64,000 nt of DNA. Source: Gammaproteobacteria bacterium. GTDB taxonomy: Bacteria; Pseudomonadota; Gammaproteobacteria; Steroidobacterales; Steroidobacteraceae. Each line of letters begins with the position of its first letter. Position 1 is the stretch's first letter. Made by a program: the position numbers and the translations under genes. The DNA lies in NCBI GenBank assembly GCA_037443765.1, contig JBBINS010000002.1:7820-71819 (forward strand). Reading direction: 5' to 3'. The notes under the pieces are model-generated. The model had not been told where the DNA came from. It did no database searches and saw only the letters and a program-made list of their open reading frames with translations. Below, in pieces: positions 19,230-58,311 of this stretch.

Positions 19230-19250
19230 CGGGGGCTCGCTCGGCGATTC

Positions 19251-20979: not shown

Positions 20980-21060
20980 CTCCGCTGCTCCGTTCGATTC
21001 CGCGAGTTATGCCGGCACGGCCGGTCCATTTCACTCAAGTTATGTTACGAATACCGTGGC

Positions 21061-27677: not shown

Positions 27678-28253
27678 CTATTCGTCGAGAAGCTGCCGGA
27701 CCTCGGCGACGAGGTCGGCGTCGCCGGCGGCATCCAGCTCGCCGTGCGCGTAGCGCACGACGCCGGCGCGGTCGATCAGCAGCGTCAGCGGCACGTCCGG
27801 CACCGAGAAGCGACGGCCGAGGACCTTGTCCGCGTCGACGCCGTTGCGGAACTTGGCGCCGACCGCGCGCGCCAGCTCGGTCGCGCGGCTCGGGTCGTCG
27901 TCGAGGCTGATGCCGACGACGACCAGGCCGGCCTGCGCGTAAGTCGCATCGAGCTTCGCAAGACGCTCAAGGTACGTCCGGCACGACCCGCACCAGCTGG
28001 TCCAGAAGCCGATCGCCACGACCTCGCCGCGCCGTTCGGACAGGCGGAAATTGCGGCCGGTACCGGAGAACAGGCGCTGCACGATCTCGGGCGCCGGCTT
28101 GCCGATCAGCGGGTGATGCGCAGCGGGATCCGCCGCGCTCGAGGTCGCGACGACGCCGATGAGCGCGAGTGCGAGCACGAGGCACGCAGCACTGCGCCGG
28201 GACCGGGCATTCAACAGAGACAGCCGCCGCACCACCGTCGCCACGAACTCCAT
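27678..28253 (-). CDS. TlpA-like periplasmic thiol:disulfide oxidoreductase
   Basis: Signal/anchor plus a WCGSC redox motif in a thioredoxin-fold context (VVAIGFWTSWCGSCRTYL). Confidence 0.85.
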   Translation of the reverse strand: MEFVATVVRRLSLLNARSRRSAACLVLALALIGVVATSSAADPAAHHPLIGKPAPEIVQRLFSGTGRNFRLSERRGEVVAIGFWTSWCGSCRTYLERLAKLDATYAQAGLVVVGISLDDDPSRATELARAVGAKFRNGVDADKVLGRRFSVPDVPLTLLIDRAGVVRYAHGELDAAGDADLVAEVRQLLDE

Positions 28254-28587
28254 GTTGTCGAGCCCAGGGCAACACGCTCAGCTCGCGTGTCGCGAGCGGC
28301 TGGCGTCCAGCGACGCACGGGCCGCCACAAAACCGGACACGGCCACTCGCGGCAACCCCGCTTTCCGTCGTTCAACGGACCGGTAGCTTTGCGTCCTCGC
28401 CTCGCGACGAGTTTGCCCTTGGCAGATTTTGTAAAGCTCGCACGCACGCCCGGCACTGTCAACGCGCAGGAACGACACAGAGTGATGGACGCTTCACAAA
28501 AACGCCCGCTAGCGGTTTTGAGCTATTCCGAGTCGCCGGATGGCGACAGGCGCACGCACCACCCGCGCCATCACGGCGTGGGACGTG

Positions 28588-30032: not shown

Positions 30033-31646
30033 TCAGCCGCCGATCTTGCCGTTGACGATCGGGGCGAAGGCCGTCAGCGCGTCGAGCGCCGAGCCCGTAC
30101 CGAGCGCCTGGTCCGGGAAGACCTGCGAGAACATGGCCTGCTGGCCGTGCAGCGCCATGTAGTTGAGGAGCACCGTCTGCACGAGCAGCAGCACGTTGTT
30201 CGCCGCGGGACTTGCGGACGCGTCGACGTTGCCGCCCGGGTTCGTGAATGCCCCGATCTGCTGGTGACGGGCCGCCGCCAGCCCGCCGGCGCCGTCGAGC
30301 AGCTGCGGCCGTCCGCCGGGGTTATAGACGAGGAAGTAGGTCGCGGCGACGCCGCCGTTGTCGCTCGTCCACATGAACTTGCCGCGGCCGTCGACCGAGG
30401 TGTCGACCTGGCCACCGGCGGAGATGCCGCCGTCGCTGAACACGTAGACCATCAGCGGCTTCTGCATGCGCGCCGCATATTCGAGGCAGGCGCCGATGCA
30501 GCGGCCGGCACGCAGGTCGCGCAGCTCGCCGGTCGCCCGGCCCTGTCCGTGGTAGTCGTAGCCGCCCATGCTGATCGTGCCGGCCCCCGCGTAGCCGTTG
30601 ACGACCATCTTCATGATCGCGGCCGTCTTCTGGAACTCCGGATCGCCCTGATACTCGGCCTGGCTGAAGATACCCGAGCCGCGGGTCGCGCTCTGGTCGA
30701 CGATCTGCGGATCGAGGTCGGGGTTGAGCGCCGACGGGCTGGAGAAGTTCTCGGCGAGGTACGCCGACTTCACGTAGTTGCAGTTGGCCGCGGACTTCAC
30801 GGCGGCGTCGGCCGCGAGCTGAGTCGAGACGTTGGAGAACTTCTGGCCGCTGATGCGCGACATCGACTCGAGCACCGAGACCGCGTCGGCCGGGTTCGTG
30901 AAGAGCTGGCCGAGCACGCCGGTGTCGACCAGGCCGGTGACGTTGCTCGCCTGGGTCACGACGGTGGGCGTCAGCGCCGGATTGACCATCGACAGCGGCG
31001 CCATCGAGTTGCCGCCGGACTGGCTCGCCTGCGAGCCGATCAGCGTCAGCAGCTCGCCCTTGGCGCCGGCCATCGCGATGCCGTACATCGGATTGTGCGG
31101 GTTCGTGTTCGTGTCGTTGTTCGACAGCGCCGGGATCACGACGCCGTTGGTGGCCGCCTGCGTCGAGGGCGCCGTCCGTTCGAGAATGCCGCGGACGTGC
31201 GCGCTGTCGGAGTGGAACAGCAGGCCGAGCCGGTTCTCGATAAAGCTGCCCGTCGCGGAGGAGTTCGGCACCATGCTGCCGGGCAGACCCATCGCGCCGT
31301 ACGCCGCCGTCGGCAGGAAGTCGGTCTGACCGCCGGCGCCGCCCACGAGCACGTTGGAGCCGGCGATGTTGCCGCCGCCCGCGAGATCGAAGCAGATGAA
31401 CGGGATCTTGCCGGCACCGCCCGTGATGCCGCAGGCGACCTTCTGCGCCAGGATGTCCGGATCGAGCGCCATCGCCCGCCCCGGATTGAGGAGCAGCCCG
31501 AGCGCCGTCGGCGCGATGACCGTGGCGGAGCCCGTCATGAAGCCCTGCGCGATGAAGTCGCGCCGCGTGACGGGACGCTTGTGGGACCCGTGGCGGATCG
31601 GCTCGTCCAGCTCGAGGGTCCGCGGCGGCTTGTTCCGGATGATCAT
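30033..31646 (-). CDS. Tat-exported DUF1501/DUF1552-like protein
   Basis: ATG at 31646 with GAGG upstream. Twin-arginine motif TRRDFIAQG, a GGGN loop near the N-terminus and an MGGYDYHG motif. Confidence 0.7.
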   Translation of the reverse strand: MIIRNKPPRTLELDEPIRHGSHKRPVTRRDFIAQGFMTGSATVIAPTALGLLLNPGRAMALDPDILAQKVACGITGGAGKIPFICFDLAGGGNIAGSNVLVGGAGGQTDFLPTAAYGAMGLPGSMVPNSSATGSFIENRLGLLFHSDSAHVRGILERTAPSTQAATNGVVIPALSNNDTNTNPHNPMYGIAMAGAKGELLTLIGSQASQSGGNSMAPLSMVNPALTPTVVTQASNVTGLVDTGVLGQLFTNPADAVSVLESMSRISGQKFSNVSTQLAADAAVKSAANCNYVKSAYLAENFSSPSALNPDLDPQIVDQSATRGSGIFSQAEYQGDPEFQKTAAIMKMVVNGYAGAGTISMGGYDYHGQGRATGELRDLRAGRCIGACLEYAARMQKPLMVYVFSDGGISAGGQVDTSVDGRGKFMWTSDNGGVAATYFLVYNPGGRPQLLDGAGGLAAARHQQIGAFTNPGGNVDASASPAANNVLLLVQTVLLNYMALHGQQAMFSQVFPDQALGTGSALDALTAFAPIVNGKIGG

Positions 31647-31668: not shown

Positions 31669-34197
31669 TTACTGCACCAGCATCGCGGCACTGCCCGCGA
31701 CGGCCGCGCAGGCGGCCTTCGCAATCGTCGCGGTGCCCGTCGTATCCGCCGACACGGATGCCGCCAGCTTGTCGATCAGTGCGTTGACCTCGGTCGTGAC
31801 CGACGCCGCGGACGGCTGGGTGGCCAGGAACTTGCCCGCCGCCGTGTTGGCGGTGAGCATCTGGTTGATCAGCGGCGTGATCAGCGCGTTGCGGCCATTC
31901 GTGTCGTAGGCCGCCGCCGGCGCCGCCCCGAAGTTCAGGCCCGGGAAGTACGCCGGGGCGAGCGTCGGGTCGCGAACCAGCGCGTCGCAGTACTGGATCG
32001 ACAGCTGCGCGATCGCGGTCTGGTGCGACGCAACGAAGGCCTGGAAGTCCGTCACCGCCGGCAGCGACTGCTGCAGCTTCGTGTACAGCGCGCTGACCGC
32101 CGCGTTGGTCTTCGGCACCGTGGTCATCGTCGACAGCGTCGTATTGATCCGCTCGAAGGTCCGCACGCCGATGTCCGACGGCAGCGGCGAATCGGTCGGG
32201 ATCGGCGCGATCGGCGTCGGATCGGTGTGCACGTGGGTCGCGGTCCCGATCTGCTCGAACGTCAGGAAGAACTGGTCGTACGACGGCCCCTTCTGCAGCG
32301 CGATCGTCGTACCCACCTTCGACAGCGCGACGGCACTGACGGCGCTCTTGGTCGGGTCGAAGCCCTGGCCGGTCACCGTCGTATTCAGCGGCGCGTACGC
32401 CTGGCCGACCGCTGCCTCGGCGCCGTTCACGCCGATGCGCATGCCCTTGATGACCAAGCCGCTGTAGTTGACCGTCGGATCGAGGCTCAGGAACACCGGC
32501 TGGTCGAACAGGTACGAGTAGCTGTCGTACTGCGACACCACGAACATCACGTAGCTCTGGTTGAGGCCCGTGAACTTGTCGACGTTGAACAGCAGGTAGT
32601 AGCGCTCGCCGACGCCGGCATTGAAGTTGGACTGCACATCGCTCGCCGACATGGCCTTGTTGTAGAGCGCGACCATCTTGATCAGTCCCGAGAACGGCCG
32701 GTCCGACGAGACCTCGTTGCCGAGCACGAGCGCGAAGGTATTGTCCCACTGCGACAGCGAGCCGCCCTTCTGCGGGTCACCGCTCGCGACCAGCGCGCCG
32801 TTGACGTAGATCTGGCGGCCGTTGATCGGATCGTAGGTCATCACGACGTGCTGCAGCGACGCCTGCAGGACCTGCTTCGCGTTCGGCGTCGACAGCGGCG
32901 GCATTCCGTTCGCGTCGGTGTTCGTGCTGCGCACGAACGCGTCGTAGTTGTACTGCGTCTGGCCGAGCGTGAAGTTCCGCTGCGTCGTGCCACCCGAGTA
33001 GGAAACGATGTACGCCTGCGTCTGCGTCACGTTGGCCGGCGCGACCCACGCCTCGACGCTGTACTCGCCCGTCGTCAGGATCATGTCGTGCAGCTTCGCG
33101 CTGCCGGTGGTCGTGCCCTGCAGCTTGCCCTTGTTCTGCACCTGCACGCCCCAGCCGCCGACCCAGGTCACGTCGCCCGACATGTCGAGGTTCAGCGCCG
33201 GTTCGACGCCGCTCGTGTCGTAGGCGACCGTGCCGGTTCCGGTCTTGAACTCGAACTTGGCGATCAGCCCCGTCTCGACGCGCGAGCCGCCGTTGTCGAC
33301 GACGCCGTCGTACAGCGTCAGCGCCTTCGACAGGACGAGGTTCGGGTCGACCTGCGTGATCGGCACCTGGTTCGCGAACGCCTGGATCGCGGCCAGCATC
33401 TGGGCCGATGCCGCGGCGCAGTCGCCGCCCCAGCAGTTGTGAAACTCGTCGTGCAGGCGAACGTAGAACCGCGACAGCGCCGGCGCGTCGAGATTCATCT
33501 TCGGCTGCGCGGCCGCGTAGGCCGCGTCGACGTCGGACTGCGCGAAGTACGGCGACTGCGCCGTCACCGCGCTCGGCGAGTGGCAGCGCGAGCAGTACTG
33601 CGTCAGCAGCGGATACACCGTCGACGCGAACAGCGACGAGTTCGTCGGGAAGGTCCGCGACCCGCCGGCGTCCATGAGCGTCGGCGCGACCAGCTGCACG
33701 GCCGCCTTCGAGGCGCCCATCGTAACGCCGGCCCAGTTCTGGATCCAGGTCGTCATCGTGTCGGAGCAAGCCTGCGTGCTGGCGAGCCAGCAGTGGTGGC
33801 CGCTAGCGACCTTCGCGACGATCTTCGAGCCGGCGGGATTCGTGAGGTCGACCACCGTCTGCGCCGCCTGATAGGCCAGGTTGACGTCGTCGCTGCGGGC
33901 GAACATCGGGCTCTGGTTGCCCTGGATGTGGCACGCGCCGCACTTGTCGGTGGTCTTGACGTTGTTCCAGAAGTTGACGACGAACGCCTGGACGTCGCCG
34001 CTCGCCGGTGCCGGGCCCGTATAGCTCTGCGTACTGCTGCTGGGCGGCGTGACCGGGTTGGCGGCGGTCTGGACGCTGCCGGCGCCGCAACCGGCGACCA
34101 GCGCGCCGGCGACGACGGCCAGCGCCGCGAGGCGCAGTTGAGCCAGGACTGCCGATGTGCGCGGCAGGAGGGTATCGATTGAGCCGAAAGCCTTCAT
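31669..34197 (-). CDS. Lipoprotein with two CxxCH haem motifs and a LamG/concanavalin-like domain (842 aa)
   Basis: Lipobox LVAGC. CGACH at 33928..33942 and CSRCH at 33580..33594. LamG-like block EYSVEAWV...GLIKMVALYNKAMS. Confidence 0.8.
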   Translation of the reverse strand: MKAFGSIDTLLPRTSAVLAQLRLAALAVVAGALVAGCGAGSVQTAANPVTPPSSSTQSYTGPAPASGDVQAFVVNFWNNVKTTDKCGACHIQGNQSPMFARSDDVNLAYQAAQTVVDLTNPAGSKIVAKVASGHHCWLASTQACSDTMTTWIQNWAGVTMGASKAAVQLVAPTLMDAGGSRTFPTNSSLFASTVYPLLTQYCSRCHSPSAVTAQSPYFAQSDVDAAYAAAQPKMNLDAPALSRFYVRLHDEFHNCWGGDCAAASAQMLAAIQAFANQVPITQVDPNLVLSKALTLYDGVVDNGGSRVETGLIAKFEFKTGTGTVAYDTSGVEPALNLDMSGDVTWVGGWGVQVQNKGKLQGTTTGSAKLHDMILTTGEYSVEAWVAPANVTQTQAYIVSYSGGTTQRNFTLGQTQYNYDAFVRSTNTDANGMPPLSTPNAKQVLQASLQHVVMTYDPINGRQIYVNGALVASGDPQKGGSLSQWDNTFALVLGNEVSSDRPFSGLIKMVALYNKAMSASDVQSNFNAGVGERYYLLFNVDKFTGLNQSYVMFVVSQYDSYSYLFDQPVFLSLDPTVNYSGLVIKGMRIGVNGAEAAVGQAYAPLNTTVTGQGFDPTKSAVSAVALSKVGTTIALQKGPSYDQFFLTFEQIGTATHVHTDPTPIAPIPTDSPLPSDIGVRTFERINTTLSTMTTVPKTNAAVSALYTKLQQSLPAVTDFQAFVASHQTAIAQLSIQYCDALVRDPTLAPAYFPGLNFGAAPAAAYDTNGRNALITPLINQMLTANTAAGKFLATQPSAASVTTEVNALIDKLAASVSADTTGTATIAKAACAAVAGSAAMLVQ
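33373..33960 (-). repeat. Tandem duplicated CxxCH module inside the LamG lipoprotein (protein-level repeat)
   Basis: Two ~80-aa units share the pattern CxxCH-x(5-8)-SP[MY]FA[RQ]SD-x3-AYxAAQ-x(5)-[DN]L-x2-PAxS-x(8-10)-[HF]H[CN]CW-x(5-8)-C. Confidence 0.6.
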
Positions 34198-34210: not shown

Positions 34211-35431
34211 TCAATTACCCATGCAGTAGGCAGCGGTCTCGGCGAACACGTTCTTCAGGGAGTAGCCCTGCGTGAAGTGCCCGACCATCGTGCTGACCTG
34301 GTTACGATCGGCGGCGTTCGACGGCGCGCGTAGGCAGACATTCGTGAACACCTTCTGGACCTGGCACTGCGCGAACTGGGCGCTCGCGCCGAACTCGGCG
34401 CCGAGCGACTTGGCGCCGTTGCCGCTACCGGGCTGCGACTGGTCCCAGCCCATCAGGGCGTTCTGGCCGGCGCGCCAGCGGTTGTCCCAGTGATCATCCG
34501 GCGTGATGTACCCCTGGGGGAACACGGTGTTGTTGTGGAAGTACTTGCCGACGACAGTGCCCGGCGTGTACGCGATCGCGCCGTTGTCGGTCGTGGTCGT
34601 GTCGATGTAGTCGTAGAAGGCGAAGGCCTGGGCCATCGGATCCATGCCGGAGTGGCAGCCGACGCAGTTGTTCAGGAACACGCGGCTGTCGCCGCCCGGG
34701 CTGCGGCTGACGTCCTGGCGGATCCGGTCGGTCGGCCGGCTCGTGTCCATCACCTGCGCCAGGTCCGTGCACATGTGGTTGATCATCGTGAAGCGGAACA
34801 TCCGACGGTTCGTACCGGCGCTGAAGAACGCGCGGGCGGCGGCGCGGGTCGTCAGCACGCCCGCGGTCGCGGCGGCCGGCAGCCCGGTCGTCGCGGACTG
34901 GGGGGCGCTGACCAGCACGTCGCGCAGGTTCAGCGACTGCGCTTCCATCTGCACGTAGTGATCGTTGGCGGAGTTCGAGTAGGCCGGCAGCCCGAGGCCG
35001 CTCTTGCCGACATAGATGATGTCGGCCGACAACACCGTATTGAACGGCACCTCGTCGCGCACCATGCCGACGACGGTCGCGACGTAGTCGTTGAGGGGCG
35101 CGAAGGCGGTCTGGTCCGTGTTCGTCCACGGCATCACGAAATTCTTCAGCACGACCGAGTAGAAGTTGCCGTTGGCATCGTCGATTGCGAGCAGCGCGGC
35201 ACCCTTTGCATCGCCGCCGCCGATCTTCGCCTGCATGGCGTCGAGCACGGCCTGCGTCGGCGGCGCGCCGTTCAGCCGGTCGTGGATGCGCATCGCCTGC
35301 TCGCGCGACGCCGCGAGCGCCTGCCCGGCCGGCATCGCCAGCACCGCGAGCAGCAGCGCGAGCAACGTCGCGCTCATCGCCCGCGTCGGGCGTGCTCCGT
35401 TCGTCTGCCTCATTTGCATCGCTGCGTTCAT
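34211..35431 (-). CDS. Secreted monohaem protein, DUF1588/DUF1585-like
   Basis: Signal peptide (ATLLALLLAVLAMPAGQALA). CVGCH at 34652..34666 followed by SGMDPMAQAFAFYD. The start is uncertain. Confidence 0.7.
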   Translation of the reverse strand: MNAAMQMRQTNGARPTRAMSATLLALLLAVLAMPAGQALAASREQAMRIHDRLNGAPPTQAVLDAMQAKIGGGDAKGAALLAIDDANGNFYSVVLKNFVMPWTNTDQTAFAPLNDYVATVVGMVRDEVPFNTVLSADIIYVGKSGLGLPAYSNSANDHYVQMEAQSLNLRDVLVSAPQSATTGLPAAATAGVLTTRAAARAFFSAGTNRRMFRFTMINHMCTDLAQVMDTSRPTDRIRQDVSRSPGGDSRVFLNNCVGCHSGMDPMAQAFAFYDYIDTTTTDNGAIAYTPGTVVGKYFHNNTVFPQGYITPDDHWDNRWRAGQNALMGWDQSQPGSGNGAKSLGAEFGASAQFAQCQVQKVFTNVCLRAPSNAADRNQVSTMVGHFTQGYSLKNVFAETAAYCMGN

Positions 35432-35760
35432 GGCAACTCACTCGCGGTCAGATTGAAACTCGAAACGACTATATCGATAGGCATTCGCAACGGTAATGTC
35501 TCAGGACTGCGACATTCGCGCAGATGTGAATCCCATCTCAGACCACATGAAAGTCGCTGTGCTGCGACATTACGGGCGGTGGGCGGTGCGGGTTACTCTC
35601 GCGTTATTCGAAGGCCTCGGAACACATGAATACGGGATTCGTCATGGCCGAGGCTGTGAGCGTGTTAACAGAATCTGGTGTCGGCGGACGACATGATGCG
35701 GTTCGCTTCACTCGTGCTGCGCGCTTCACGCGCGGCGCGAGCGGCGCGGCCGAAGCGAGG

Positions 35761-38634
35761 ATGCGGATGGATACGTGGAACGGAACACTGCTGGTACGCG
35801 CGCAGCGCCTGCTCGTCGTCGGCATCGTCGCGGTGCTCGCAGCCGCGTGCTCGAGTAGCAGCGGCACCGCCGGCGGCGGCAACAGCGGCATCAGCCTCGG
35901 TAGCGGCGGGTCGACGAACGACCCGGTGTCGCCGGACTTCGCGATCGCCTACATCAAGCGCACGCTGCCGAAGGCCGCCGACCCGAACGCGATCACGCTC
36001 GTCGACGACCTGCGCGTACAGCGTGTTTGGAACGGCACCGCGGATGTCATCGTGCGCGAGAGCGCGAGCCCGTCGGCCGGCGAGAAGAACATCACGGCGG
36101 CGCTCGCCTGCCCGCTGGCGTCGGACCCCAACCAGAATTCGGGACCCGACCACGACGTGCGCGATCTCGACACCTCCTTCGATGGCGCGAAGCTCGTGTT
36201 CTCGTTCCGCTGCCGCCCGATCAAGAACGCCAAGGAATCGCAGCAGCCGCGCTGGACGATCTTTGAGTACAATCACGCGACCGGCAAGCTGCGCCAGGTC
36301 ATCTCGGATCCGATCGCGGCCGCGCTCGGCCACGACGTCGGCCCGCACTACCTGCCCGACGGCCGCCTCGTGTTCTCGTCGTCACGTCAGCACGACGCCA
36401 AGGCGGTGCTGATCGACGAGGGCAAGGCTCAGTTCTCTGCCGGCATCGAGGGCGACCGCAACCTGCCGGCGTTCGTGCTTCACGTGATGACGATCGCGGA
36501 CGCCAACGGCAACCCCGTCGACGGCAGCACCAGCATCCGGCAGATCTCCTTCAATACGGGCCACGATCTCGACCCGTCCGTGCTCAACGACGGCCGCATC
36601 GTGTTCACGCGCTGGGACCAGAACTCCGGTGCCGGCATGCACCTCTACGCCATCGACCCCGACGGCGGCGACATGCAACTGCTGTACGGACGCAACAGCC
36701 ACGACACGGGCAACCCGACGACGGCGCAGGGCGGCTCGCTGGTTCAATTCACGCAGGCGCGGGCGCGGCCGGATGGCAAAGTCGTCGCGCTGCTGCTGCC
36801 GTTCATGGGGACGAACTTCGGCGGCGACATCGCCCTGATCGACTCGGCCAGCTGGGTCGAGAACCTGCAGAGCGTGCTCGGCGCGACCGTGGCGCCGGGC
36901 GCGACCGGTCAGGTACGGATGGTGGTCAACGACGTCATCACGACACAGGCGCCGACCGCCAATCCGAACGCGCCGGCGGGCACGCCGGCGCCCTCCGCGC
37001 CGGCCTCGCCCGGCGGCCGCTTCTCGAGCGTCTATCCGCTGTGGGACGGGACCAACCGGCTGCTCGTCACATGGTCGCAGTGCCGGCTGACGATCCAGAC
37101 CCTCGTCGTCCCCTGCACCTCGGACAACCTCGCGAACGCCACGGCCGTGCCGGCTCCGACGATCTACAGCGTCTGGATCTACGACCCCACCAACAACACG
37201 CAGCTGCCCATCGCGCCGCCGGTCGAGGGCATCATGTACACGAACGTGGTCGCGCTGCAGCCGCGACTGCCGACCCCGACGCCGATCCCGGACGCCCAGC
37301 CGAGCACGACCGGGTCCTATACGTTCACGCTCGCCGCCGAGGGCGTCGGCATCCTCGATATAAAGAGCGTCTACGACTTCGACGGCGTCGACACGGCGCC
37401 GGGCGGCATCGCCGCCGTCCGCGACCCGACGACGCGCGTGGCGAGCCCGACCCGGCCGCGCTTCGTGCGCATCGAGAAGGCCGTGAGCCTGCCCGACAAG
37501 GAGGTGCTGCCGAACGCCGCCCTCCCCAACTTCGCCTTCGGCGCCGCCGGCAACTTCATGCGCGAAATCATCGGCTACGCGCCGGTGGAACCGGACGGCT
37601 CGGTGCGTGTGACGGTGCCGTCGAATATTCCCTTCCAGATCAGCATCCTCGATGCCAACGGCCGGCGCCTCGACGGCGCCTTCCCGCGTCATCGCGCCTG
37701 GCTGCAGGTCCGCACTGGCGAGACGGTGGTCTGCAACGGCTGCCACACCCAGCAGCAGATTCCGCCGTCGAATTCGCACGGCCGCACGGGACTGTTCTCG
37801 CTCGTGAATACGGGTGCAGCCGCCGGCGTGGCGTTCCCGAACACGGCCCTGCAAGTGACCAACCGCACCGGTGCCAACGTGGCCCCGGCCCGCCTGCCGA
37901 ACGGCGGCGAAACGATGGCCGAGTACCGCGCCGCGGAGCAGGTCACCTGCGTCGACGTGGCGTGCTCGGCCAACCCGGCGGTCGATCTCGTCTTCGCCGA
38001 CGTATGGACGATCACCGGCGTGGGCACGGCCGATCCGGCGTTCTCATGGACCTACGCGCAGCTTGGGACGCCCGCCCCGGTCCGCGCCGACTGCGAGACC
38101 AACTGGCAGGGCAACTGCCGGATCACGATCCATTACCCGCTGCACATCGCCCCGCTCTGGACCAGTCCGCGGTCGACCATCACCGCGATCGACCCGACGT
38201 CGACGGTGGCGTACACGACCTGCACGGGCTGTCACAGCCCCAAGACGACCGCGGGCGTCAAGCAGGTCCCCGCCGGCCAGCTCGACCTCTCCAGCTCGCC
38301 GGCCTCGACCAATCCCTGCGTCCAGCAGGAGTTCACGTCCTTCTGCCAGCTGCTGTTCCCGCACCCGCAGCTCGACCCTGTTACTATGCAGCCGGTCATC
38401 GTGCCCGGACCGCCGGACCCGGTGACGGGCCTGCCCACGCAGGTCATCGTTCAGGTCAATCCGCCAATGAGCGGCGCGGGAGCGAATGCTTCGGCGGCCT
38501 TCTTCAACGAGTTCGCCACCGGTGGCACGCACGCCGGCTGGCTGACCGGGGCCGAGCTGAAGCTGATCTCCGAGTGGCTCGACATCGGCGCCCAGTACTA
38601 CAACGATCCGTTCGCGATCCCACCTGCCAACTGA
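35761..38634 (+). CDS. Lipoprotein with PD40/TolB-like beta-propeller repeats and two CxxCH motifs (HzsA-related-like)
   Basis: Lipobox LAAAC. PD40-like blades. CNGCH at 37732..37746 and CTGCH at 38221..38235. Start at ATG 35761 or 35767. Confidence 0.8.
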   Translation: MRMDTWNGTLLVRAQRLLVVGIVAVLAAACSSSSGTAGGGNSGISLGSGGSTNDPVSPDFAIAYIKRTLPKAADPNAITLVDDLRVQRVWNGTADVIVRESASPSAGEKNITAALACPLASDPNQNSGPDHDVRDLDTSFDGAKLVFSFRCRPIKNAKESQQPRWTIFEYNHATGKLRQVISDPIAAALGHDVGPHYLPDGRLVFSSSRQHDAKAVLIDEGKAQFSAGIEGDRNLPAFVLHVMTIADANGNPVDGSTSIRQISFNTGHDLDPSVLNDGRIVFTRWDQNSGAGMHLYAIDPDGGDMQLLYGRNSHDTGNPTTAQGGSLVQFTQARARPDGKVVALLLPFMGTNFGGDIALIDSASWVENLQSVLGATVAPGATGQVRMVVNDVITTQAPTANPNAPAGTPAPSAPASPGGRFSSVYPLWDGTNRLLVTWSQCRLTIQTLVVPCTSDNLANATAVPAPTIYSVWIYDPTNNTQLPIAPPVEGIMYTNVVALQPRLPTPTPIPDAQPSTTGSYTFTLAAEGVGILDIKSVYDFDGVDTAPGGIAAVRDPTTRVASPTRPRFVRIEKAVSLPDKEVLPNAALPNFAFGAAGNFMREIIGYAPVEPDGSVRVTVPSNIPFQISILDANGRRLDGAFPRHRAWLQVRTGETVVCNGCHTQQQIPPSNSHGRTGLFSLVNTGAAAGVAFPNTALQVTNRTGANVAPARLPNGGETMAEYRAAEQVTCVDVACSANPAVDLVFADVWTITGVGTADPAFSWTYAQLGTPAPVRADCETNWQGNCRITIHYPLHIAPLWTSPRSTITAIDPTSTVAYTTCTGCHSPKTTAGVKQVPAGQLDLSSSPASTNPCVQQEFTSFCQLLFPHPQLDPVTMQPVIVPGPPDPVTGLPTQVIVQVNPPMSGAGANASAAFFNEFATGGTHAGWLTGAELKLISEWLDIGAQYYNDPFAIPPAN

Positions 38635-38638
38635 CCGA

Positions 38639-39412
38639 ATGCGTACAGTTCTGAAGCTCGCGAGCTTACTTATTCTGGCAACGGCGGCGGGACTCGCGCA
38701 CTCGGCAGACGGCGCGCGGCAATTCGACCGCGACGCCGGCCGCTACGTCGACGTCGCCGTCGCCGACCCCTACCTCGAACTGCACACCGGTGCTGGCGCG
38801 AGCTACCCGGTATTCCGCGTCATCCCGCGCGGCGAGCACATCGAGATCCTGTTCCGGCGCACCGACTGGTTCAAGGTCCGCGACGACCACGACCGCGAGG
38901 GCTGGGCGCACCGCGACAACATGCAGGAGACCCTGCTCGCGTCGGGCGAGAAGCTGCCGCTCGAGGACCTGTCGCACCGTGACTTCGACATCTGGCCGTG
39001 GGAATCCGGCGTCCAGAGCGGCAACTTCGGCGGCGGCAACGTCAACAGCATCTACGTCGGCTATTCGCTGAACCCGAACCTGGCCACCGAGCTCGGCGTG
39101 TCACAGACCCTCGGGCGCTCCGCCAATGGCGTGCTCGCGGTCCTTGGCCTCACACACTCGCCGCGTCCCGACTGGCGCCTCGCGCCGTTCGTGCAGCTCG
39201 GCAGCGGTGTCATCAGGATCCAGCCGAAGGCGACGATCATCTCGCCGCCGGAGCGCACCGAACAGGTCGCCTACTACGGCGCCGGCGTCAAATGGTACCT
39301 GTCGCGTCGCTTCATCCTGCGTGCGGACTACCGCAGCTACGTGCTCTTCACGCGACGCGACACAAACGAGGATCGGAACGAATGGAAAGCAGGCTTCGCG
39401 TTCTTCTTCTGA
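38639..39412 (+). CDS. Outer-membrane beta-barrel protein with N-terminal SH3-like domain
   Basis: Signal peptide, an SH3_3-like segment (YPVFRVIPRGEHIEILFRRTDWFKVRDDHDREGWAH), alternating beta-strand pattern and a C-terminal ...GFAFFF. Confidence 0.75.
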   Translation: MRTVLKLASLLILATAAGLAHSADGARQFDRDAGRYVDVAVADPYLELHTGAGASYPVFRVIPRGEHIEILFRRTDWFKVRDDHDREGWAHRDNMQETLLASGEKLPLEDLSHRDFDIWPWESGVQSGNFGGGNVNSIYVGYSLNPNLATELGVSQTLGRSANGVLAVLGLTHSPRPDWRLAPFVQLGSGVIRIQPKATIISPPERTEQVAYYGAGVKWYLSRRFILRADYRSYVLFTRRDTNEDRNEWKAGFAFFF

Positions 39413-40071
39413 TCGTCTGCGCGCTCGCGCTCGGGGGCTGCTCGATGTGGCCGTTCCACAAGAAGCAGCGCGCTGAGGAATTGCCGGTCGAGGCGACGTC
39501 TGCCGAGGGCACCGCGCCCTCGGTCGTCGAACCGCAGGTCGCGCGCCGCACGGTCAAGACGCCCAAGATAAAGAACTCCAACTTCGAGATCGGACCGTAT
39601 ATCGGCACCTACAGCGCCGAGGACTTCGGCGTCAATCCCGTGCTCGGGGCCCGCCTCGTCTATCACATCAGCGAGGACTTCTTTGCGCAGGGCCTGATCG
39701 GCCGGACCACGGTCGGCCTGACGAGCTACGAACGCCTGTCGGGCGGGGCGCAGCTGCTGACCGATAGTCAGCGCAAGCTCACGTATTACAGCCTCGACTT
39801 CGGGTACAACCTGCTGCCGGGAGAGGTGTTCGTCAGCCCGCGGCGGGCGTTCAACTCGGCGCTGTACGTGACCGGCGGCGTCGGCGCGACGCACTTCGCG
39901 GGCGACAACCGCTTCACGGTCGCGATCGGGGCCGGCTACCGCCTGCTTCTGAACGACTGGCTGGCGGCGCACTTCGACGTGCGCGACAGCATCTTCGACG
40001 AGAACCTCTTGGGCACGAACAAGACGACGCACAATCTCGAGACCGGTCTCGGCGTGACCGTGTTCTTCTGA
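39382..40071 (+). CDS. Outer-membrane beta-barrel lipoprotein (OMP_myx_plus-like)
   Basis: ATG at 39382. Lipobox LGGC, beta-strand periodicity and C-terminal ...GLGVTVFF. Overlaps the upstream gene by 31 nt. Confidence 0.75.
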   Translation: MESRLRVLLLIVCALALGGCSMWPFHKKQRAEELPVEATSAEGTAPSVVEPQVARRTVKTPKIKNSNFEIGPYIGTYSAEDFGVNPVLGARLVYHISEDFFAQGLIGRTTVGLTSYERLSGGAQLLTDSQRKLTYYSLDFGYNLLPGEVFVSPRRAFNSALYVTGGVGATHFAGDNRFTVAIGAGYRLLLNDWLAAHFDVRDSIFDENLLGTNKTTHNLETGLGVTVFF

Positions 40072-40096
40072 CGCGACTACCGGACGGAGACGACGC

Positions 40097-40606
40097 ATGA
40101 GCCTGAAGTCCCTGTGCATCGCGATCGCGCTTGCCGCGAGCGCTGGCGTTTCGACGACGGCGCTCGGCGCGGACCCGATCGGGCAGCCGGCACCGGCGTT
40201 CACGCTGCCACTGCGTGGCGGCTCCGCCCCGCTCGCGCTCGACAAGCTGCGTGGACAGGTCGTGATGGTCAACTTCTGGGCGTCGTGGTGCGAGCCGTGC
40301 CGCAAGGAGTTCCCGCTGCTCGACCAGATCTACAAGAAGTACAAGGCCGCCGGCTTTACGCTCGTCGGCGTCAACGTCGAACCGGACGCGAAGGACGCGG
40401 AGAGCTTCATCGCCAAGACGCCGGTGACGTTCCCGATCCTGTTCGACAAGGACAGCGCCGTCAGCAAGCTGTACCACGTCGCCGGCATGCCGACGACCGT
40501 GCTGATCGACCGCAAGGGTGTGCTCCGCTGGGTGCACCGCAGCTACGTGCCGGGCGACGAGAACGAGTACCTGAACCAGGTTCGCGCCATTCTGATGGAG
40601 AAATAG
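40097..40606 (+). CDS. TlpA/ResA-like thioredoxin-fold protein
   Basis: Signal peptide and a WCEPC motif (VVMVNFWASWCEPCRKEFP). Confidence 0.88.
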   Translation: MSLKSLCIAIALAASAGVSTTALGADPIGQPAPAFTLPLRGGSAPLALDKLRGQVVMVNFWASWCEPCRKEFPLLDQIYKKYKAAGFTLVGVNVEPDAKDAESFIAKTPVTFPILFDKDSAVSKLYHVAGMPTTVLIDRKGVLRWVHRSYVPGDENEYLNQVRAILMEK

Positions 40607-40608
40607 CC

Positions 40609-40836
40609 ATGACGAAGCCCTGCTTCCTCGTGCTGCTGGCAGTGATGGCCATGACCTCGGGCTGCGGCCGGATCCAGCCTTGGGTCAAGCCGTACGAGCG
40701 CGAGCGACTCGCCGACAAGGTCATGGCCTGGGACCGCGATCCGATCGCCCAGAGCTACATCACGCACGTCCACGAGAACCGCGAGGGCGCGCACGGCGGC
40801 ACCGGCGAGGCCGGCGGCGGCTGCGGCTGCAACTGA
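40609..40836 (+). CDS. DUF4266 small lipoprotein
   Basis: 75 aa with a lipoprotein-type signal ending SGC and the characteristic C-terminal GGGCGCN. Confidence 0.8.
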   Translation: MTKPCFLVLLAVMAMTSGCGRIQPWVKPYERERLADKVMAWDRDPIAQSYITHVHENREGAHGGTGEAGGGCGCN

Positions 40837-40865
40837 CGCATCGGGCGGTAACGGATTCCACGGCC

Positions 40866-42038
40866 ATGAGCTTCACCTTCAGCCTACGCCGCATCGCCTG
40901 CATGGCGGTCGCCTATCTTGCGGCGGCGAGCGCCCTCGCGGACGTCCTGCCCGAGGAGCGCGCCGACCTCAGCTGGCGCACCTACGACGGCGGCGGCCTG
41001 AAGGTGGAAGGTCCTGCGATGCTGGTCCGGAAGAACTTCTCCGACAACGTCTCCGTCAGCGCCGGGTACCAGGTCGACCAGGTGACGGGCGCCTCGATCG
41101 ACATGGTCGTGCTCGGCGCGAGCCCGCTGCACGAGGTGCGCAAGCAAAAGCAGCTCGGCGTCGACTACCTGTACGGCAAGACGACCTACAGCGTCGGCGT
41201 CGAGAGCAGCATCGAGAACGACTACGACTCGAGCAACGTCAACGCCGGCATCTCGCAGAGCATGTTCGGTGACCTGACCACGATCACGATCGGCGTCAGC
41301 CGCGGCTGGGACATCATCACGCGCGTCATCAACGCCGCGCACCAGAAGGATCCGAACTTCCGCAAGCGCCTAGACCGCAAGACCTGGTCGCTCGGCGTCT
41401 CGCAGATCCTGACGCGCAACCTGATCGCCGGCTTCGACTACGAGGCGATCACCGAGCAGGGCTATCTGCAGAACCCCTACCGGGCGATCCGCTACCTGGC
41501 CGCACCGGGCTCGACGATCTACCTGACGGCCCCGGAGGTCTTCCCGGGCACCCATACGAGCAACGCAGCCGCATTCAGGCTCAAGTACTTCCTGCCGTGG
41601 CACGCCTCGGTCGCCGGCAAGTACCGCTATTCCTTCGACACCTGGGACATCCGCGCCCAGACCGCCGAGGCCGACTACACACAGCCGTTCTTCGACGAGG
41701 CGCTGATCGCCGACCTGACCTACCGCTACTACAGGCAGAATTCGGCGTCGTTCTACTCGGACCTGTTCCAGTTCGCGAACCAGCAGAACTACATGGCGCG
41801 CGACCGGGAGCTGGCTGCCCAGGACAACAACACCGTCGGCGCCGCCGTGTCCTACGACTTCCTCAAGTCGAAGCACTGGATCGTGAAGAAGGCGTCCGGG
41901 TCGCTGCACTACGACTACATCATGTACAAGTACAAGGACTTCCGCGACGCGACGCAGCGCCAGCTGCCCGCCGGGACGGAGCCGCTCTACCACTACAACG
42001 CCAGCGTCGTGCAGGCGTTCGTCTCGATCTGGTTCTGA
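40866..42038 (+). CDS. DUF3570 domain protein (predicted flavinylated outer-membrane beta-barrel)
   Basis: Signal peptide, beta-strand periodicity and a C-terminal aromatic (..VSIWF). Carries the DQVTGAS motif. Confidence 0.85.
   Translation: MSFTFSLRRIACMAVAYLAAASALADVLPEERADLSWRTYDGGGLKVEGPAMLVRKNFSDNVSVSAGYQVDQVTGASIDMVVLGASPLHEVRKQKQLGVDYLYGKTTYSVGVESSIENDYDSSNVNAGISQSMFGDLTTITIGVSRGWDIITRVINAAHQKDPNFRKRLDRKTWSLGVSQILTRNLIAGFDYEAITEQGYLQNPYRAIRYLAAPGSTIYLTAPEVFPGTHTSNAAAFRLKYFLPWHASVAGKYRYSFDTWDIRAQTAEADYTQPFFDEALIADLTYRYYRQNSASFYSDLFQFANQQNYMARDRELAAQDNNTVGAAVSYDFLKSKHWIVKKASGSLHYDYIMYKYKDFRDATQRQLPAGTEPLYHYNASVVQAFVSIWF
41076..41096 (+). other. Candidate ApbE flavinylation site (DQVTGAS) in DUF3570
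   Basis: The codons gac cag gtg acg ggc gcc tcg match Dxx[ST]GA[ST]. apbE is the convergent neighbouring gene. Confidence 0.6.
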
Positions 42039-42042
42039 GTCG

Positions 42043-42061
42043 GGCGCGCCGGTCGCGCGCC
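42043..42061. terminator. GC hairpin between convergent DUF3570 and apbE genes
   Basis: GGCGCGC-cggtc-GCGCGCC, a 7-bp stem. There is no U-tract on either side. Confidence 0.3.
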
Positions 42062-42062
42062 G

Positions 42063-43040
42063 CTACTTCGGCGGCTCGAGGCCCTTCGTGTACCAGACCT
42101 TGCCGTACTTATCGACGACGACGGCGTCCATCTGCGGATACCGCTCGATCAGCCGGATCCCCTCGATCGGGCCCTTGATGAATACACCCTTCGACCAGCC
42201 CTCGGTGTCGGTCGCGGTCGGGCCGATGATCGTCACGCTACGCACACCGATCGGGCTCTTGCCGGTCTTCGGATCGATGATATGGTGGTACCGGATACCG
42301 CCCTCGTCGAAGAAGCGCTCGTAATCGCCCGACGTCGAAATGCCGACGTCGGCGAGCGGCATGCTGAGGACGACCTTGTTCTTGTTGTCGGGATTGCGGA
42401 TCCCGACGACCCATGGCCTCCCGCGCCGGTCGCCGAGCAGGCGCGTGTCGCCGCCGGCCATCACCATCGCGTGGGCGACCCCGAAACCCTTGAGAATCCC
42501 GACCGCCTGGTCGCAGGCGTAGCCCTTGGCGATGCCGCCGAGATCGATGCGCATGCCCTCGCGCGCGAACTTGACGGTGTGGTGCTCGGCATCAAGCACG
42601 AGGTTGCGGTAGTTGACGCCCGGCAGCGCCGCCTTGATCTCCGCGTCGCTCGGATGGATGTGGCGCGGGTAGTCGTAGAGGTAGCCGACGCTCGCGTAGG
42701 TGATGTCGAACGCGCCCTCCGTGATCTCGGAGTAGTGGATCGAGGTCTTTATCAGGTCGAAGAGCTCGGGATCGACCGCGACCGGCTCGACGGCGGCGTG
42801 CATGTTGATCCGCGAGAGCTGGCTCTCCGGCTTGTAGTGACTCATCAGCTCGTCGATGCGGCGCATGTTGTCCATGACCGCGTCGATCGCCGCCTCGCCC
42901 TGGATCCGGTCGTCGTGCCAGACCTCGACGTAGATGCGGGTCCCCATGATTGATTCTTCGCGATGCAGCCAGTCGGCGCGGGCCGGAGTGACTGCAAACA
43001 GCGACAGTGCGATGGCGAACAGACTCGCGGCAAGCTTCAT
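42063..43040 (-). CDS. apbE: FAD:protein FMN transferase
   Basis: 325 aa with a signal peptide. ApbE family motifs (IMGT..., DLGGIAKGYA, SGDYERFF, HHIIDPKTG). Confidence 0.92.
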   Translation of the reverse strand: MKLAASLFAIALSLFAVTPARADWLHREESIMGTRIYVEVWHDDRIQGEAAIDAVMDNMRRIDELMSHYKPESQLSRINMHAAVEPVAVDPELFDLIKTSIHYSEITEGAFDITYASVGYLYDYPRHIHPSDAEIKAALPGVNYRNLVLDAEHHTVKFAREGMRIDLGGIAKGYACDQAVGILKGFGVAHAMVMAGGDTRLLGDRRGRPWVVGIRNPDNKNKVVLSMPLADVGISTSGDYERFFDEGGIRYHHIIDPKTGKSPIGVRSVTIIGPTATDTEGWSKGVFIKGPIEGIRLIERYPQMDAVVVDKYGKVWYTKGLEPPK

Positions 43041-43181
43041 GTAATTTCTCCGTGGACCGCCATTATCGGCCCGCGGGCGGCGCGACGCAGCCTCAGCGTG
43101 CGGTCGGTTATCATGCGGCCAAGGAACCCGGCGCCGCGTCCGCGGTCATTGAGTAAGAGAAATCATCACAGGGGATCGACC

Positions 43182-44009
43182 ATGACAGCGCGACGCATCG
43201 TCTACACGCTGGTGCTCTTCCTGGCCGCGAACGCCGCGGCCTACGCCGGCAACCGCGAAGAAGCGCGCATCCTCCAGGCGACCCAGGTGTTGCAGGACAC
43301 CCAGGCGATGCCGGACCAGCGCGTGCCGGACTGGCTGCTGCAGCGGGCGCAAGGCATCGCGGTCATCCCGAACGTGGTGAAAGTCGCCTTGATCGCCGGT
43401 GGCCGCGGCGCGAAGGGCATTCTTATGGTGCGCGACCCGCAGGGGCGCTGGAGCAATCCGGTGTTCCTGACCCTTGGCGGTGGCAGCTTCGGGTTCCAGT
43501 GGGGCCTCGAGGTCAGCGACGTCATCCTGGTGTTCACGACCCGGCGCAGCATCGAGGGTGTGACCGGCGGCAAGCTCACGCTCGGCGCCGACGCATCGGT
43601 CGCCGTCGGCCCAATCGGACGCTCGGTCTCCGGGGCGACCGACATCGGGCTCGCCGAGGTGTACTCGTATTCGCAGTCCAAGGGACTGTTCGCCGGCGTC
43701 GCCATCGACGGAACCGTGCTCGCGATCGACCATTCGGCGAACGCGGCGTACTACCAGCGACCGGGCGTGCTGGCCTCGGACATCCTGGCGCCGACCGCCC
43801 CCGCGCCGCCGCCGAGCGCGCAACGGCTGCTTGACGCGCTCCGTCGGTTGCCGAGCGGCGGCGATGGCGTTGCTCCGGCGGCGCGCTCCCCGACGGCGGC
43901 GGCCGGATCGCCTGCCGCTGCGGCGCAGCAAGCGGCGCCGGACGCGCGTGGTTTAGAGTCCGGCGGTGCGACGACGTACCCGCTCAACGACCCTAAGCCG
44001 CACCGCTAG
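43182..44009 (+). CDS. SYLF (Ysc84/DUF500) lipid-binding domain protein with Pro/Ala-rich tail
   Basis: Signal peptide plus SYLF motifs (GIAVIPNVVKVALIAGGRGAKG, GADASVAVGPIGR, YSYSQSKGLFAGV). Confidence 0.85.
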   Translation: MTARRIVYTLVLFLAANAAAYAGNREEARILQATQVLQDTQAMPDQRVPDWLLQRAQGIAVIPNVVKVALIAGGRGAKGILMVRDPQGRWSNPVFLTLGGGSFGFQWGLEVSDVILVFTTRRSIEGVTGGKLTLGADASVAVGPIGRSVSGATDIGLAEVYSYSQSKGLFAGVAIDGTVLAIDHSANAAYYQRPGVLASDILAPTAPAPPPSAQRLLDALRRLPSGGDGVAPAARSPTAAAGSPAAAAQQAAPDARGLESGGATTYPLNDPKPHR

Positions 44010-58087: not shown

Positions 58088-58311
58088 CGCCAAAATCGTC
58101 ACCCGTGACCGGCAGCAACGAGTCGGAAGCGGCTGGTTTGCACCCCGCCCATTCTTCGCCGCAGATTATCCTGAGCCGCGGTCGACGATAGACTTCCGGT
58201 AGACGTCAGCGCCGATCACGCTCTGGATTTTTCTGCAGAACCAGGCGGGGTCTTGTCTGAGGACGCCGCTAACCAGCGGATTTCTTGACGGAATTCTCGG
58301 TATAGCTTCCG

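Follow-up and report, generated by a model that had tools for sequence, protein, structure and literature searches.

Gene clusters that encode ApbE together with DUF3570, a thioredoxin-like protein and DUF4266 were described by Meheust et al. in 2021 (PMC8238504). In the passages of that paper that deal with this module, DUF4266 is its CXC protein, 227 clusters are counted with DsbD and 316 without it, and the extra partners mentioned are DsbD and, in 25 cases, VIT1. The same passages report experiments in which the DUF3570 protein of Chlorobium luteolum was flavinylated by its ApbE at two [S/T]GA[S/T] sites, and they propose a hybrid thiol/flavin electron-transfer system whose function is left open. 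One further paper places the trio of TlpA, DUF4266 and DUF3570 beside surface-sorted JDVT-CTERM proteins in a few Pseudomonadota, and the flavinylation papers of 2024 and 2025 do not mention DUF3570. Here, we analyzed a stretch of 64,000 nucleotides (nt) from a member of the Steroidobacteraceae (assembly GCA_037443765.1, contig JBBINS010000002.1, positions 7,820 to 71,819, forward strand; hereafter the window), in which the genes of this module directly follow those of a two-haem lipoprotein cytochrome and two small barrel proteins.

Two other described systems are touched by this locus. Homologues of the alpha subunit of hydrazine synthase, to which the cytochrome is similar, are widespread and have no confirmed function; those described so far adjoin homologues of the beta-gamma subunit (PMC12758564). 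Agl/Glt core complexes, which a neighbouring gene cluster resembles, were reported in Gammaproteobacteria without a known function, and gltA and gltB were placed as having arisen within the delta lineage (Luciano 2011, PMC3169522). We found no mention of cytochromes in the latter paper.

A sequence-only reading of the window had presented the coupling of haem and flavin genes as an arrangement not known to have been described for the DUF3570 module. The module of TlpA, DUF4266, DUF3570 and ApbE is itself published (PMC8238504), whereas its association with cytochrome and barrel genes was not found described in the literature. What appears new is thus the fusion of the module with a two-haem lipoprotein, two small barrels and a divergent haem/Tat (twin-arginine translocation) operon. 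On gene organisation and its conservation, we consider it highly probable that the six genes form one operon and that their association with the flavin module is conserved. Our composite reading, to which we give a probability of about 0.5, is that a nine-gene unit grafts the thiol/flavin module onto three haem proteins and would form a relay at the outer membrane.

The probable six-gene operon and the divergent genes

Six open reading frames (ORFs) with coding-type GC3 (G+C content at third codon positions) lie consecutively on the + strand between 35.7 and 42.04 kb of the window, whose overall G+C content is about 68%. They are listed here with the two features that follow them.

35767..38634 (alternative start 35761), + strand: gene 1, predicted outer-membrane lipoprotein cytochrome (PF18582, PD40, lipobox, two haem motifs)
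38639..39412, + strand: gene 2, secreted SH3-domain protein whose C-terminus forms a small predicted barrel (SH3_3, OMP_b-brl)
39382..40071, + strand: gene 3, OMP_myx_plus barrel lipoprotein (TIGR04565, lipobox)
40097..40606, + strand: gene 4, predicted periplasmic TlpA/ResA-like thiol-disulfide oxidoreductase (Redoxin, Sec signal peptide, WCEPC)
40609..40836, + strand: gene 5, small DUF4266 lipoprotein (PF14086, E = 2e-22; lipobox TSGC with Gly at +2)
40866..42038, + strand: gene 6, DUF3570, the expected ApbE substrate (PF12094, E = 2.3e-41, 142 bits against a cut-off of 25)
42043..42061, no strand: GC-rich hairpin GGCGCGC-CGGTC-GCGCGCC within the 24 nt that separate the stop codons of the convergent genes for DUF3570 and ApbE
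42063..43040, - strand: ApbE, flavin adenine dinucleotide (FAD):protein flavin mononucleotide (FMN) transferase with a signal peptide, convergent to DUF3570 (PF02424, E = 1.3e-80)

The junctions were read directly from the letters. Gene 1 stops at 38634, 4 nt ahead of the gene 2 ATG at 38639; gene 2 stops at 39412, so that it overlaps gene 3, with its ATG at 39382, by 31 nt; and 25 nt separate the gene 3 stop (40071) from the gene 4 ATG (40097), which is preceded by a GGAG ribosome-binding site. The gap is 2 nt between the gene 4 stop (40606) and the gene 5 ATG (40609), and 29 nt between the gene 5 stop (40836) and the gene 6 ATG (40866), gene 6 ending at 42038. These values are identical to those given in the sequence-only reading (+4, -31, +25, +2 and +29), whose domain calls also hold: HZS_alpha and PD40 with two CxxCH motifs, Redoxin/TlpA, DUF4266, DUF3570 and two barrel domains. 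The start of gene 1 is more likely 35767 than 35761, because the public call for an identical protein is 955 amino acids (aa) long; a GAGG sits 6 nt ahead of this second ATG. For DUF3570 of the window, an exact look-up gave no record.

A consensus scan of 35300-43200 found no sigma-70-like promoter. A single weak terminator-like site was called at 40044-40060, inside the end of gene 3; such sites were fewer than in shuffled sequence, and this one is no more stable than its shuffles (z = +0.70). With their common direction, junctions of at most 29 nt, a conserved 31-nt overlap and no promoter-like site inside, they behave as one operon, in line with the co-transcription that had been proposed.

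The hairpin beyond gene 6 has a 7-bp all-GC stem, a 5-nt loop and no U-tract, and its free energy is -17.6 kcal/mol on the + strand and -17.8 kcal/mol on the - strand (z = -1.25 and -1.81). As many as 24 of 200 shuffles folded as well or better, and the terminator scan made no call there. It had been described as the only hairpin, placed after the last gene; it does exist and is the sole intergenic one, but comparable GC-rich inverted repeats occur inside genes, for example at 36970-36991 and 39503-39523. We rejected it as proof of the operon end, since the shuffle statistics and the similar repeats within genes make it weak. It may act as a bidirectional, non-canonical terminator.

Upstream of gene 1, three further genes run in the opposite direction.

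35432..35766, no strand: intergenic region of 335 nt between the one-haem gene (-) and the cytochrome gene (+), with conserved non-coding blocks
34211..35431, - strand: divergent gene 1, secreted 406-aa one-haem protein (one CxxCH, CVGCH; no Pfam family)
31669..34197, - strand: divergent gene 2, 842-aa two-haem lipoprotein (CGACH, CSRCH; Laminin_G_3, here LamG, E = 4.4e-25)
30033..31646, - strand: divergent gene 3, 537-aa Tat-exported protein (twin-arginine signal RRDFIAQG)

These genes are separated by 13 and 22 nt, which is as tight as in the six-gene operon. To place the locus among relatives, one-genome-per-species contigs were scanned with a DUF3570 alignment as the seed. This gave 80 loci (individual ones are cited by number with the prefix L) with DUF3570 at 46-87% identity, all from Steroidobacteraceae-like or unclassified gammaproteobacterial metagenome-assembled genomes. 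Each was scored by tblastn with every window protein, and only contigs that reach far enough were counted as informative. The cytochrome was present in 61 of 61 informative loci, the SH3 barrel (gene 2) in 69 of 69, the OMP_myx_plus barrel (gene 3) in 72 of 72, and TlpA and DUF4266 in 77 of 77 each. On the divergent side, the one-haem gene was found in 55 of 55 and the LamG gene in 51 of 51. ApbE adjoins DUF3570 in only 14 of 66 related loci, which indicates that it is located elsewhere in most related genomes.

The gene order and the tight junctions recur in about 60-77 species-level genomes, and this recurrence puts the layout beyond chance. The estimated medians of the five junctions across 66-77 loci are 13, -31, 12, 25 and 20 nt. 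In 67 of 71 loci (L008-L087 range), genes 2 and 3 overlap by precisely 31 nt; the conservation of this overlap suggests translational coupling and, as its length is fixed, also a fixed stoichiometry of the two small barrels.

The layout extends to more distant genomes. Contigs that encode gene 1 homologues of 100, 70, 57, 50 and 49% identity all have it. A profile-free exhaustive search with gene 1, for which 1986 homologues were scored, gave 423 representative clusters (50% identity) at E <= 1e-30, and the best 150 of them all have at least 35% identity. Five from among the most distant or atypical of these (36-39% identity reached) were looked up. Three of the contigs are long, one of them being that of Gammaproteobacteria bacterium 45_16_T64, and carry the same nine-gene core between flanks that are unrelated to those of the window: the genes for the Tat-exported, LamG two-haem and one-haem proteins, divergent from those for the cytochrome, the two barrels, TlpA, DUF4266 and DUF3570. 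The other two contigs are short and hold fragments consistent with this core. Those distant loci whose upstream sequence is long enough (L089 and L092-L094) have the one-haem gene as well.

As a negative control, we used one Hymenobacter plasmid together with 15 metagenome loci of Bacteroidota type, most of which have ApbE beside DUF3570. Two of these DUF3570 loci showed DUF4266 and a thioredoxin-like gene, and homologues of the cytochrome, barrel, LamG, one-haem and Tat-exported proteins were detectable neither on the plasmid nor in the 15 loci. A search of a plasmid collection yielded a single Hymenobacter plasmid for DUF3570 and nothing for the cytochrome or for the Tat-exported and one-haem proteins.

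Thus, the cytochrome and barrel genes, whose adjacency to DUF3570 in other genomes had been named as a point on which the earlier proposal would stand or fall, are next to it in every one of the 61-72 informative loci and in more distant gammaproteobacteria. Replaced flanks and the lost adjacency of ApbE argue that selection holds the block together. As a pattern of gene neighbourhood, the association elaborates the DUF3570 module in a way that is specific to this lineage, yet deep and without exception. The six genes are indeed conserved as a block, as the sequence-only reading had it, but the unit is larger, since the three divergent genes are equally conserved; by these counts, the conserved unit, which is shared by Steroidobacteraceae-like and other Gammaproteobacteria that are uncultured, consists of nine genes in divergent halves, and the six-gene operon is one half.

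Predicted products and their cofactors

Gene 1 encodes a protein with the lipobox LAAAC and Ser at +2, followed by an N-terminal PD40/TolB-type beta-propeller, an HZS_alpha middle domain that carries the first haem motif (CNGCH), and a C-terminal domain that carries the second (CTGCH). Besides PD40, it matches PF18582 with 53.6 bits (cut-off 26.6). Its alignment with the hydrazine synthase alpha subunit (PDB 5c2v_A) is collinear but weak (E = 4.4e-7), and extends from the propeller through the middle domain, where it includes the first CxxCH, to the C-terminal part. The NCBIfam equivalog hydrazine_alpha (NF052339) scored 41 bits against a cut-off of 800, and no domain of HZS beta/gamma or CCP/MauG type was found among the annotated neighbours. 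A true hydrazine synthase subunit was therefore rejected; by its domains, gene 1 shares the fold type of the alpha subunit and is not the enzyme. Across 12 aligned homologues of 51-76% identity, no change was seen in the lipobox Cys, in either haem motif or in H924, a C-terminal His. The second motif (window 38221-38235) has the form CX4CH (CTQ[GA]GCH) in a large sister clade, for example in L021, L025, L029 and L036, so that two haem sites are kept throughout the gene 1 orthologues. A plain count of CxxCH would mis-score the sister-clade cytochromes as one-haem proteins.

The products of genes 2 and 3 are smaller. Gene 2 combines an N-terminal bacterial SH3 domain (SH3_3, E = 8.4e-10) with a C-terminal region that matches OMP_b-brl at E = 2.7e-5, under the gathering score, and weakly the N-terminal barrel of OprF (4rlc_A, E = 0.0038); it ends in FFF. 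The gene 3 protein consists of the lipobox LGGC with Ser at +2, a linker and a barrel domain of about 155 residues ending in VFF. It scored 158.6 bits with TIGR04565 (cut-off 60), a family that is expanded in Myxococcales. BLASTP showed no significant similarity between the two barrels (E = 0.29), and their paralogy was rejected on this value. From their lengths of about 150 residues each, we judge them to be anchor-sized rather than channel-sized. Both of the 'two outer-membrane barrels' of the earlier description are small; the large barrel is predicted to be DUF3570 itself.

Gene 4 matches Redoxin (E = 1.8e-28), AhpC-TSA (E = 4e-28) and also Thioredoxin_8 in Pfam. Its best NCBIfam matches are ResA first and then StoA, TlpA and DsbE, all under the cut-off, and the active site WC[GE]PC is found in 69 of 70 orthologues. 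The C-terminal CXC motif of gene 5, GGCGCN, is present in the window copy and in 75 of 78 orthologues. The translation of gene 6 begins with a recognizable signal sequence, and two flavinylation sites were found in it, DQVTGAS (residues 71-77) and LGAS (residues 83-86). At the first site, D71 and S77 are invariant and the pattern D..[ST][SG][AV][ST] is kept in all 80 orthologues; at the second, [SGT]AS is found in 75 of 80, and the first residue of LGAS in the window is neither S nor T. ApbE is the enzyme expected to flavinylate DUF3570. Judged by these families and motifs, genes 4-6 and ApbE are a member of the published DUF3570 flavinylation module.

DUF3570 was modelled with AlphaFold2 from an alignment of 14 sequences. 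The model (predicted local distance difference test score, pLDDT, 76; predicted template modelling score, pTM, 0.72) is an up-down beta meander of 18 strands, and a Foldseek search against the PDB returned outer-membrane barrels only (PelB, FadL, porins, OmpG and AlgE). The C-terminal residue is Phe or Tyr in 80 of 80 orthologues. Both flavinylation sites are on a 15-residue connection between strands 3 and 4. The long connections of the model (15, 27 and 13 residues) are all on odd-numbered loops, and the even-numbered turns have at most 7 residues. The N-terminus of such barrels is usually periplasmic, and the canonical topology has long external loops and short periplasmic turns. With the N-terminus taken as periplasmic, the flavin loop is thus predicted to face outward or to fold into the lumen. 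ApbE would then have to modify DUF3570 before its insertion into the outer membrane, which is compatible with the flavinylation of an insoluble protein lacking its signal peptide, as published in the passages of PMC8238504 on the module; those passages do not describe DUF3570 as an outer-membrane barrel. All three barrel proteins (genes 2, 3 and 6) end in an aromatic residue of the Phe or Tyr type, and genes 1, 3 and 5 have lipoboxes. From the signal peptides, the lipoboxes with Ser or Gly at +2, the barrel matches and the model, five of the six products are predicted to be at the outer membrane.

Among the divergent products, the one-haem protein has one CxxCH in 55 of 55 orthologues and a weak PSCyt3-like match (E = 0.039), and the LamG protein has two CxxCH motifs in 52 of 52. 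The Tat-exported protein is the most conserved of the cluster, with 7989 homologues, the best 120 of which have 60-98% identity; no Pfam domain was found on these 120. The protein itself belongs to no Pfam or NCBIfam family, Pfam being blank even at E <= 5, and a profile search of the PDB gave spurious repeat matches only. An AlphaFold2 model from a 15-sequence alignment was unusable (pLDDT 44). Several of its motifs, rich in Asp, His and Asn, do not vary; invariant motifs are FICFDLAGG, NDT..NPHNPMYGI, GGYDYHGQGR and SDG. They are reminiscent of DUF1501 and the alkaline-phosphatase superfamily, a resemblance that Pfam does not support at E <= 5. The Tat-exported protein is a likely catalytic component. 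In some sources it is called GspF, apparently through mis-annotation.

The 335-nt region between the two halves contains blocks that are invariant or nearly so among species whose proteins are only about 45% identical. They include GACTATA (35466-35472), AATGTCTCA (35495-35503) and two palindromes of the form A[TA]GTC[TG]C-N6-GCGACAT at about 35496-35515 and 35551-35570. In a k-mer survey, AATGTCTC was found at a fixed distance in 46 of 57 orthologous intergenic regions. The palindrome occurs twice in the clade of the window and once in the sister clade, and in the window copy both palindromes fold into a long imperfect inverted repeat (z about -2.1). The 57 regions contained no consensus pattern of FNR, Fur, sigma-54, OxyR or NsrR, and a pattern of the extracytoplasmic function (ECF) type was seen in 3 of them. 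A riboswitch or leader RNA in the 330 nt upstream of the cytochrome gene was rejected, because no Rfam family matched this intergenic region and the long hairpin is not conserved in the sister clade. The blocks are probably operator sites of a regulator common to both operons.

Neighbouring genes

Two features outside the nine-gene unit recur near it.

43182..44009, + strand: Ysc84/SYLF-domain lipoprotein of 275 aa (PF04366, E = 1.3e-37)
18309-27136, - strand: Agl/Glt-like cluster, comprising a TonB-like protein, ExbD, ExbB and two large TPR (tetratricopeptide repeat) proteins, by domain matches

The Ysc84 gene is located within 10 kb downstream in 43 of 45 loci and, in most relatives, directly after DUF3570 on the same strand; in the window, ApbE separates the two in the opposite orientation. 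The gene is absent in the distant loci L089, L093 and L094. In relatives, it may be a seventh member of the operon. A gene for a methionine sulfoxide reductase (PMSR) lies just past the Ysc84 gene in L006 (19591-20244) and L007 (17807-18469), and is not at that position in the window.

In the window, the divergent operon extends further, first to genes for a methyltransferase-like protein and a DsbE-like redoxin and then to those for two large TPR proteins, for ExbB and ExbD, and for a TonB-like protein. The redoxin, a second secreted protein of the DsbE/CcmG type (window 27678-28277, - strand), is conserved in L002, L006 and L007, and may be a separate thiol reductant for cytochrome maturation. 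In the Agl/Glt-like cluster, the C-terminal domain of the TonB-like protein is of the AgmX/PglI (GltG/GltJ) type, with 67.7 bits for NF033768 (cut-off 40); MotA_ExbB, ExbD and TPR domains were also found, and the equivalog models GltE, GltG and GltJ scored far under their cut-offs. In L093 (15971-22637), homologous TPR-TPR-ExbB genes are directly downstream of DUF3570 on the same strand, so that these genes are linked to the haem/flavin unit in two arrangements, that of the window and that of L093. They were not found within 10 kb in L089 and L094.

Further away, the region 58000-63000 has a G+C content of 57-63%, compared with about 68% elsewhere, and encodes an enoyl-CoA hydratase, an aminomethyltransferase-like protein and an AraC-type regulator. 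It may have been acquired horizontally and seems unrelated to the haem/flavin unit.

A possible thiol/flavin/haem relay and known systems

The composite reading can be put as a series of steps. An inner-membrane protein of the DsbD/CcdA type, not encoded in the window, would reduce the TlpA-like protein, which would pass electrons to the CXC motif of DUF4266 by thiol-disulfide exchange at the inner face of the outer membrane. DUF4266 would then reduce the covalent FMN on the strand 3-4 loop of the DUF3570 barrel, and the FMN would exchange electrons with the haems of the lipoprotein cytochrome, held nearby by the two small barrels as anchors or scaffold. Via the cytochrome or alongside it, electrons would reach the LamG, one-haem and Tat-exported proteins, and the complex would perform a redox reaction, either at the outer membrane or across it. 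The cytochrome set would be a lineage-specific client of a portable thiol-to-flavin module, and the occurrence of the trio beside unrelated surface proteins (JDVT-CTERM) elsewhere fits such a module. For the direct transfer of electrons between flavin and haem, our expectation is tentative and falls somewhat short of even odds.

Several observations weigh against this relay. Contact and electron transfer between DUF3570 and the cytochrome are inferred from gene data. No DsbD/CcdA was found among the annotated ORFs of the window, most of which have coding-type GC3, nor within 10 kb in eight related loci with gene tables (L002-L007, L089, L093, L094 range). The flavin loop has a pLDDT of 41-51 in the DUF3570 model, and the side of the membrane that it faces rests on the topology rule. 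Given its resemblance to hydrazine synthase alpha, gene 1 may function as an enzyme whose haem is catalytic, and not carry electrons. Furthermore, the 3' end of the transcript is not fixed by the hairpin, given that the hairpin is undistinctive and that the Ysc84 gene comes directly next in most relatives. The linkage was seen in Gammaproteobacteria only, where shared ancestry inflates the counts.

That last point would also suit a reading in which synteny conserves two independent modules side by side. The cytochrome would work with the LamG, one-haem and Tat-exported proteins as an enzyme system of the periplasm or outer membrane, and the DUF3570 module would have a separate purpose, as in lineages without these cytochromes, with no electrons passing between flavin and haem. 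The linked cases all belong to one class, in which inheritance could keep the order; the DUF3570 module occurs alone in Bacteroidota and in several hundred clusters in the relevant passages of Meheust 2021; and other HZS_alpha homologues pair with homologues of the beta-gamma subunit (PMC12758564). Yet the barrels and the cytochrome are co-directional with the module at junctions of at most 25 nt, the block survives both replaced flanks (L089, L093 and L094) and the loss of ApbE adjacency (kept in 14 of 66 loci), and neither half was seen alone in any informative locus of the lineage. We regard the separation into two systems as rather unlikely. It is quite improbable, in our view, that the thiol proteins serve maturation or maintenance, the TlpA-like redoxin and possibly DUF4266 keeping the CxxCH cysteines of the five-haem protein set reduced so that haem can be attached, as ResA and CcmG do, or repairing oxidized residues, instead of supplying a catalytic electron flow. 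Three adjacent c-type cytochrome genes, a second DsbE-like redoxin at 27678-28277 and the best NCBIfam matches of gene 4 (ResA, StoA, TlpA and DsbE, all under the cut-off) would agree with such a role, but the trio of TlpA, DUF4266 and DUF3570 occurs in many lineages that lack these cytochromes, it is hard to see what a covalently flavinylated barrel in the outer membrane would do in haem ligation, and the flavinylation and CXC motifs are conserved as much as the haem motifs.

The unit might alternatively be the outer-membrane end of an envelope-spanning, TonB/ExbBD-driven machine of the Agl/Glt type for transport or surface assembly, in which the barrels and lipoproteins would serve as the platform at the outer membrane and the redox cofactors would be secondary, for example in sensing or substrate processing. 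The run of the divergent operon into TPR, ExbB, ExbD and TonB-like genes with an AgmX/PglI domain (67.7 bits against 40), the rearranged second linkage in L093, the expansion of the gene 3 barrel family (TIGR04565) in Myxococcales, and the core complexes without known function in Gammaproteobacteria (Luciano 2011, PMC3169522) all point this way. However, L089 and L094 have no TPR/ExbB genes within 10 kb, the Glt equivalog matches are far under their cut-offs, and gltA and gltB are of the delta lineage (PMC3169522), so the window barrels are not established as their orthologues. We consider this explanation unlikely; it would, moreover, complement a redox function rather than exclude it. A more far-reaching version of the relay would make DUF3570, DUF4266 and the cytochrome a new trans-outer-membrane thiol/flavin/haem conduit without a multihaem cytochrome, in which the porin-sized DUF3570 barrel would bear one or two covalent FMN groups on a loop that reaches the lumen or the outer face, serving the Tat-exported, LamG and one-haem enzyme set and organised by the Glt-like TonB/ExbBD/TPR complex. 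Such a conduit has, we think, little chance of being the case; if true, four or five orphan protein families would gain their first function at once.

Throughout a large lineage that is widespread in the environment, the module is tied to fixed partners, namely three proteins with five haem sites between them, the two small barrels and the highly conserved Tat-exported protein. This fixed set offers candidate electron partners for the DUF3570 module, whose function Meheust et al. left open. If DUF3570 is an outer-membrane barrel, the site of the module would be the outer membrane instead of the periplasm, which suggests an alternative to porin-cytochrome conduits that is based on flavin. In addition, a large branch of the hydrazine-synthase-alpha fold (the 423 representative clusters at E <= 1e-30) is placed in a non-anammox context and is linked to a gammaproteobacterial Glt-like core complex.

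The locus can be set against five known systems. Like the porin-cytochrome conduits (MtrCAB, PioAB and Pcc), it co-encodes an outer-membrane barrel with c-type cytochrome lipoproteins, and electron movement to or across the outer membrane is proposed for it. In those conduits, a cytochrome of ten or more haems is threaded through a barrel of about 26 strands, whereas the cytochromes of the window have two, two and one haem motifs, its largest barrel has about 18 strands, and two of its barrel domains have about 150 residues. The MtrAB type, a barrel of more than 20 strands around a periplasmic cytochrome of at least eight haems, was not found in the window, and the DUF3570 barrel would carry a covalent FMN on a loop, unlike conduit barrels, which enclose a cytochrome. 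The similarity to the Agl/Glt core complex lies in the neighbouring genes, which encode large TPR proteins, ExbB/ExbD-like proteins and a TonB-like protein with a C-terminal domain of the GltG/GltJ type; these genes are outside the six-gene unit and not always adjacent to it, and their similarity to the Myxococcus Glt equivalog models is weak.

Hydrazine synthase alpha of Kuenenia (PDB 5C2V) and gene 1 share a domain order: a propeller comes first, then a middle domain that bears the first CxxCH, and last a C-terminal domain with the second haem motif and a conserved His. Gene 1 differs in being anchored as a lipoprotein, in being gammaproteobacterial, and in its partners, which are DUF3570, the small barrels and the LamG protein. 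Gene 4 resembles the relays from DsbD/CcdA to TlpA, ResA or CcmG in its secreted thioredoxin fold, its WCxPC site and its best matches (ResA/TlpA/DsbE); it misses the curated cut-offs, and its partners are a CXC lipoprotein and a flavinylated barrel instead of those of cytochrome maturation or copper-centre assembly. The module in the corresponding passages of PMC8238504 has four components in common with the window, namely a DUF3570 with [S/T]GA[S/T]-type sites, a DUF4266 that ends in CXC, a protein of thioredoxin fold and an ApbE that is secreted. Gene 4 matches other Pfam models than the PF13899 cited there. The typical cluster in those passages contains no cytochrome or additional barrels, whereas the window has an operon in which the module is joined by a two-haem lipoprotein and two small barrels and is paired with a divergent haem/Tat operon.

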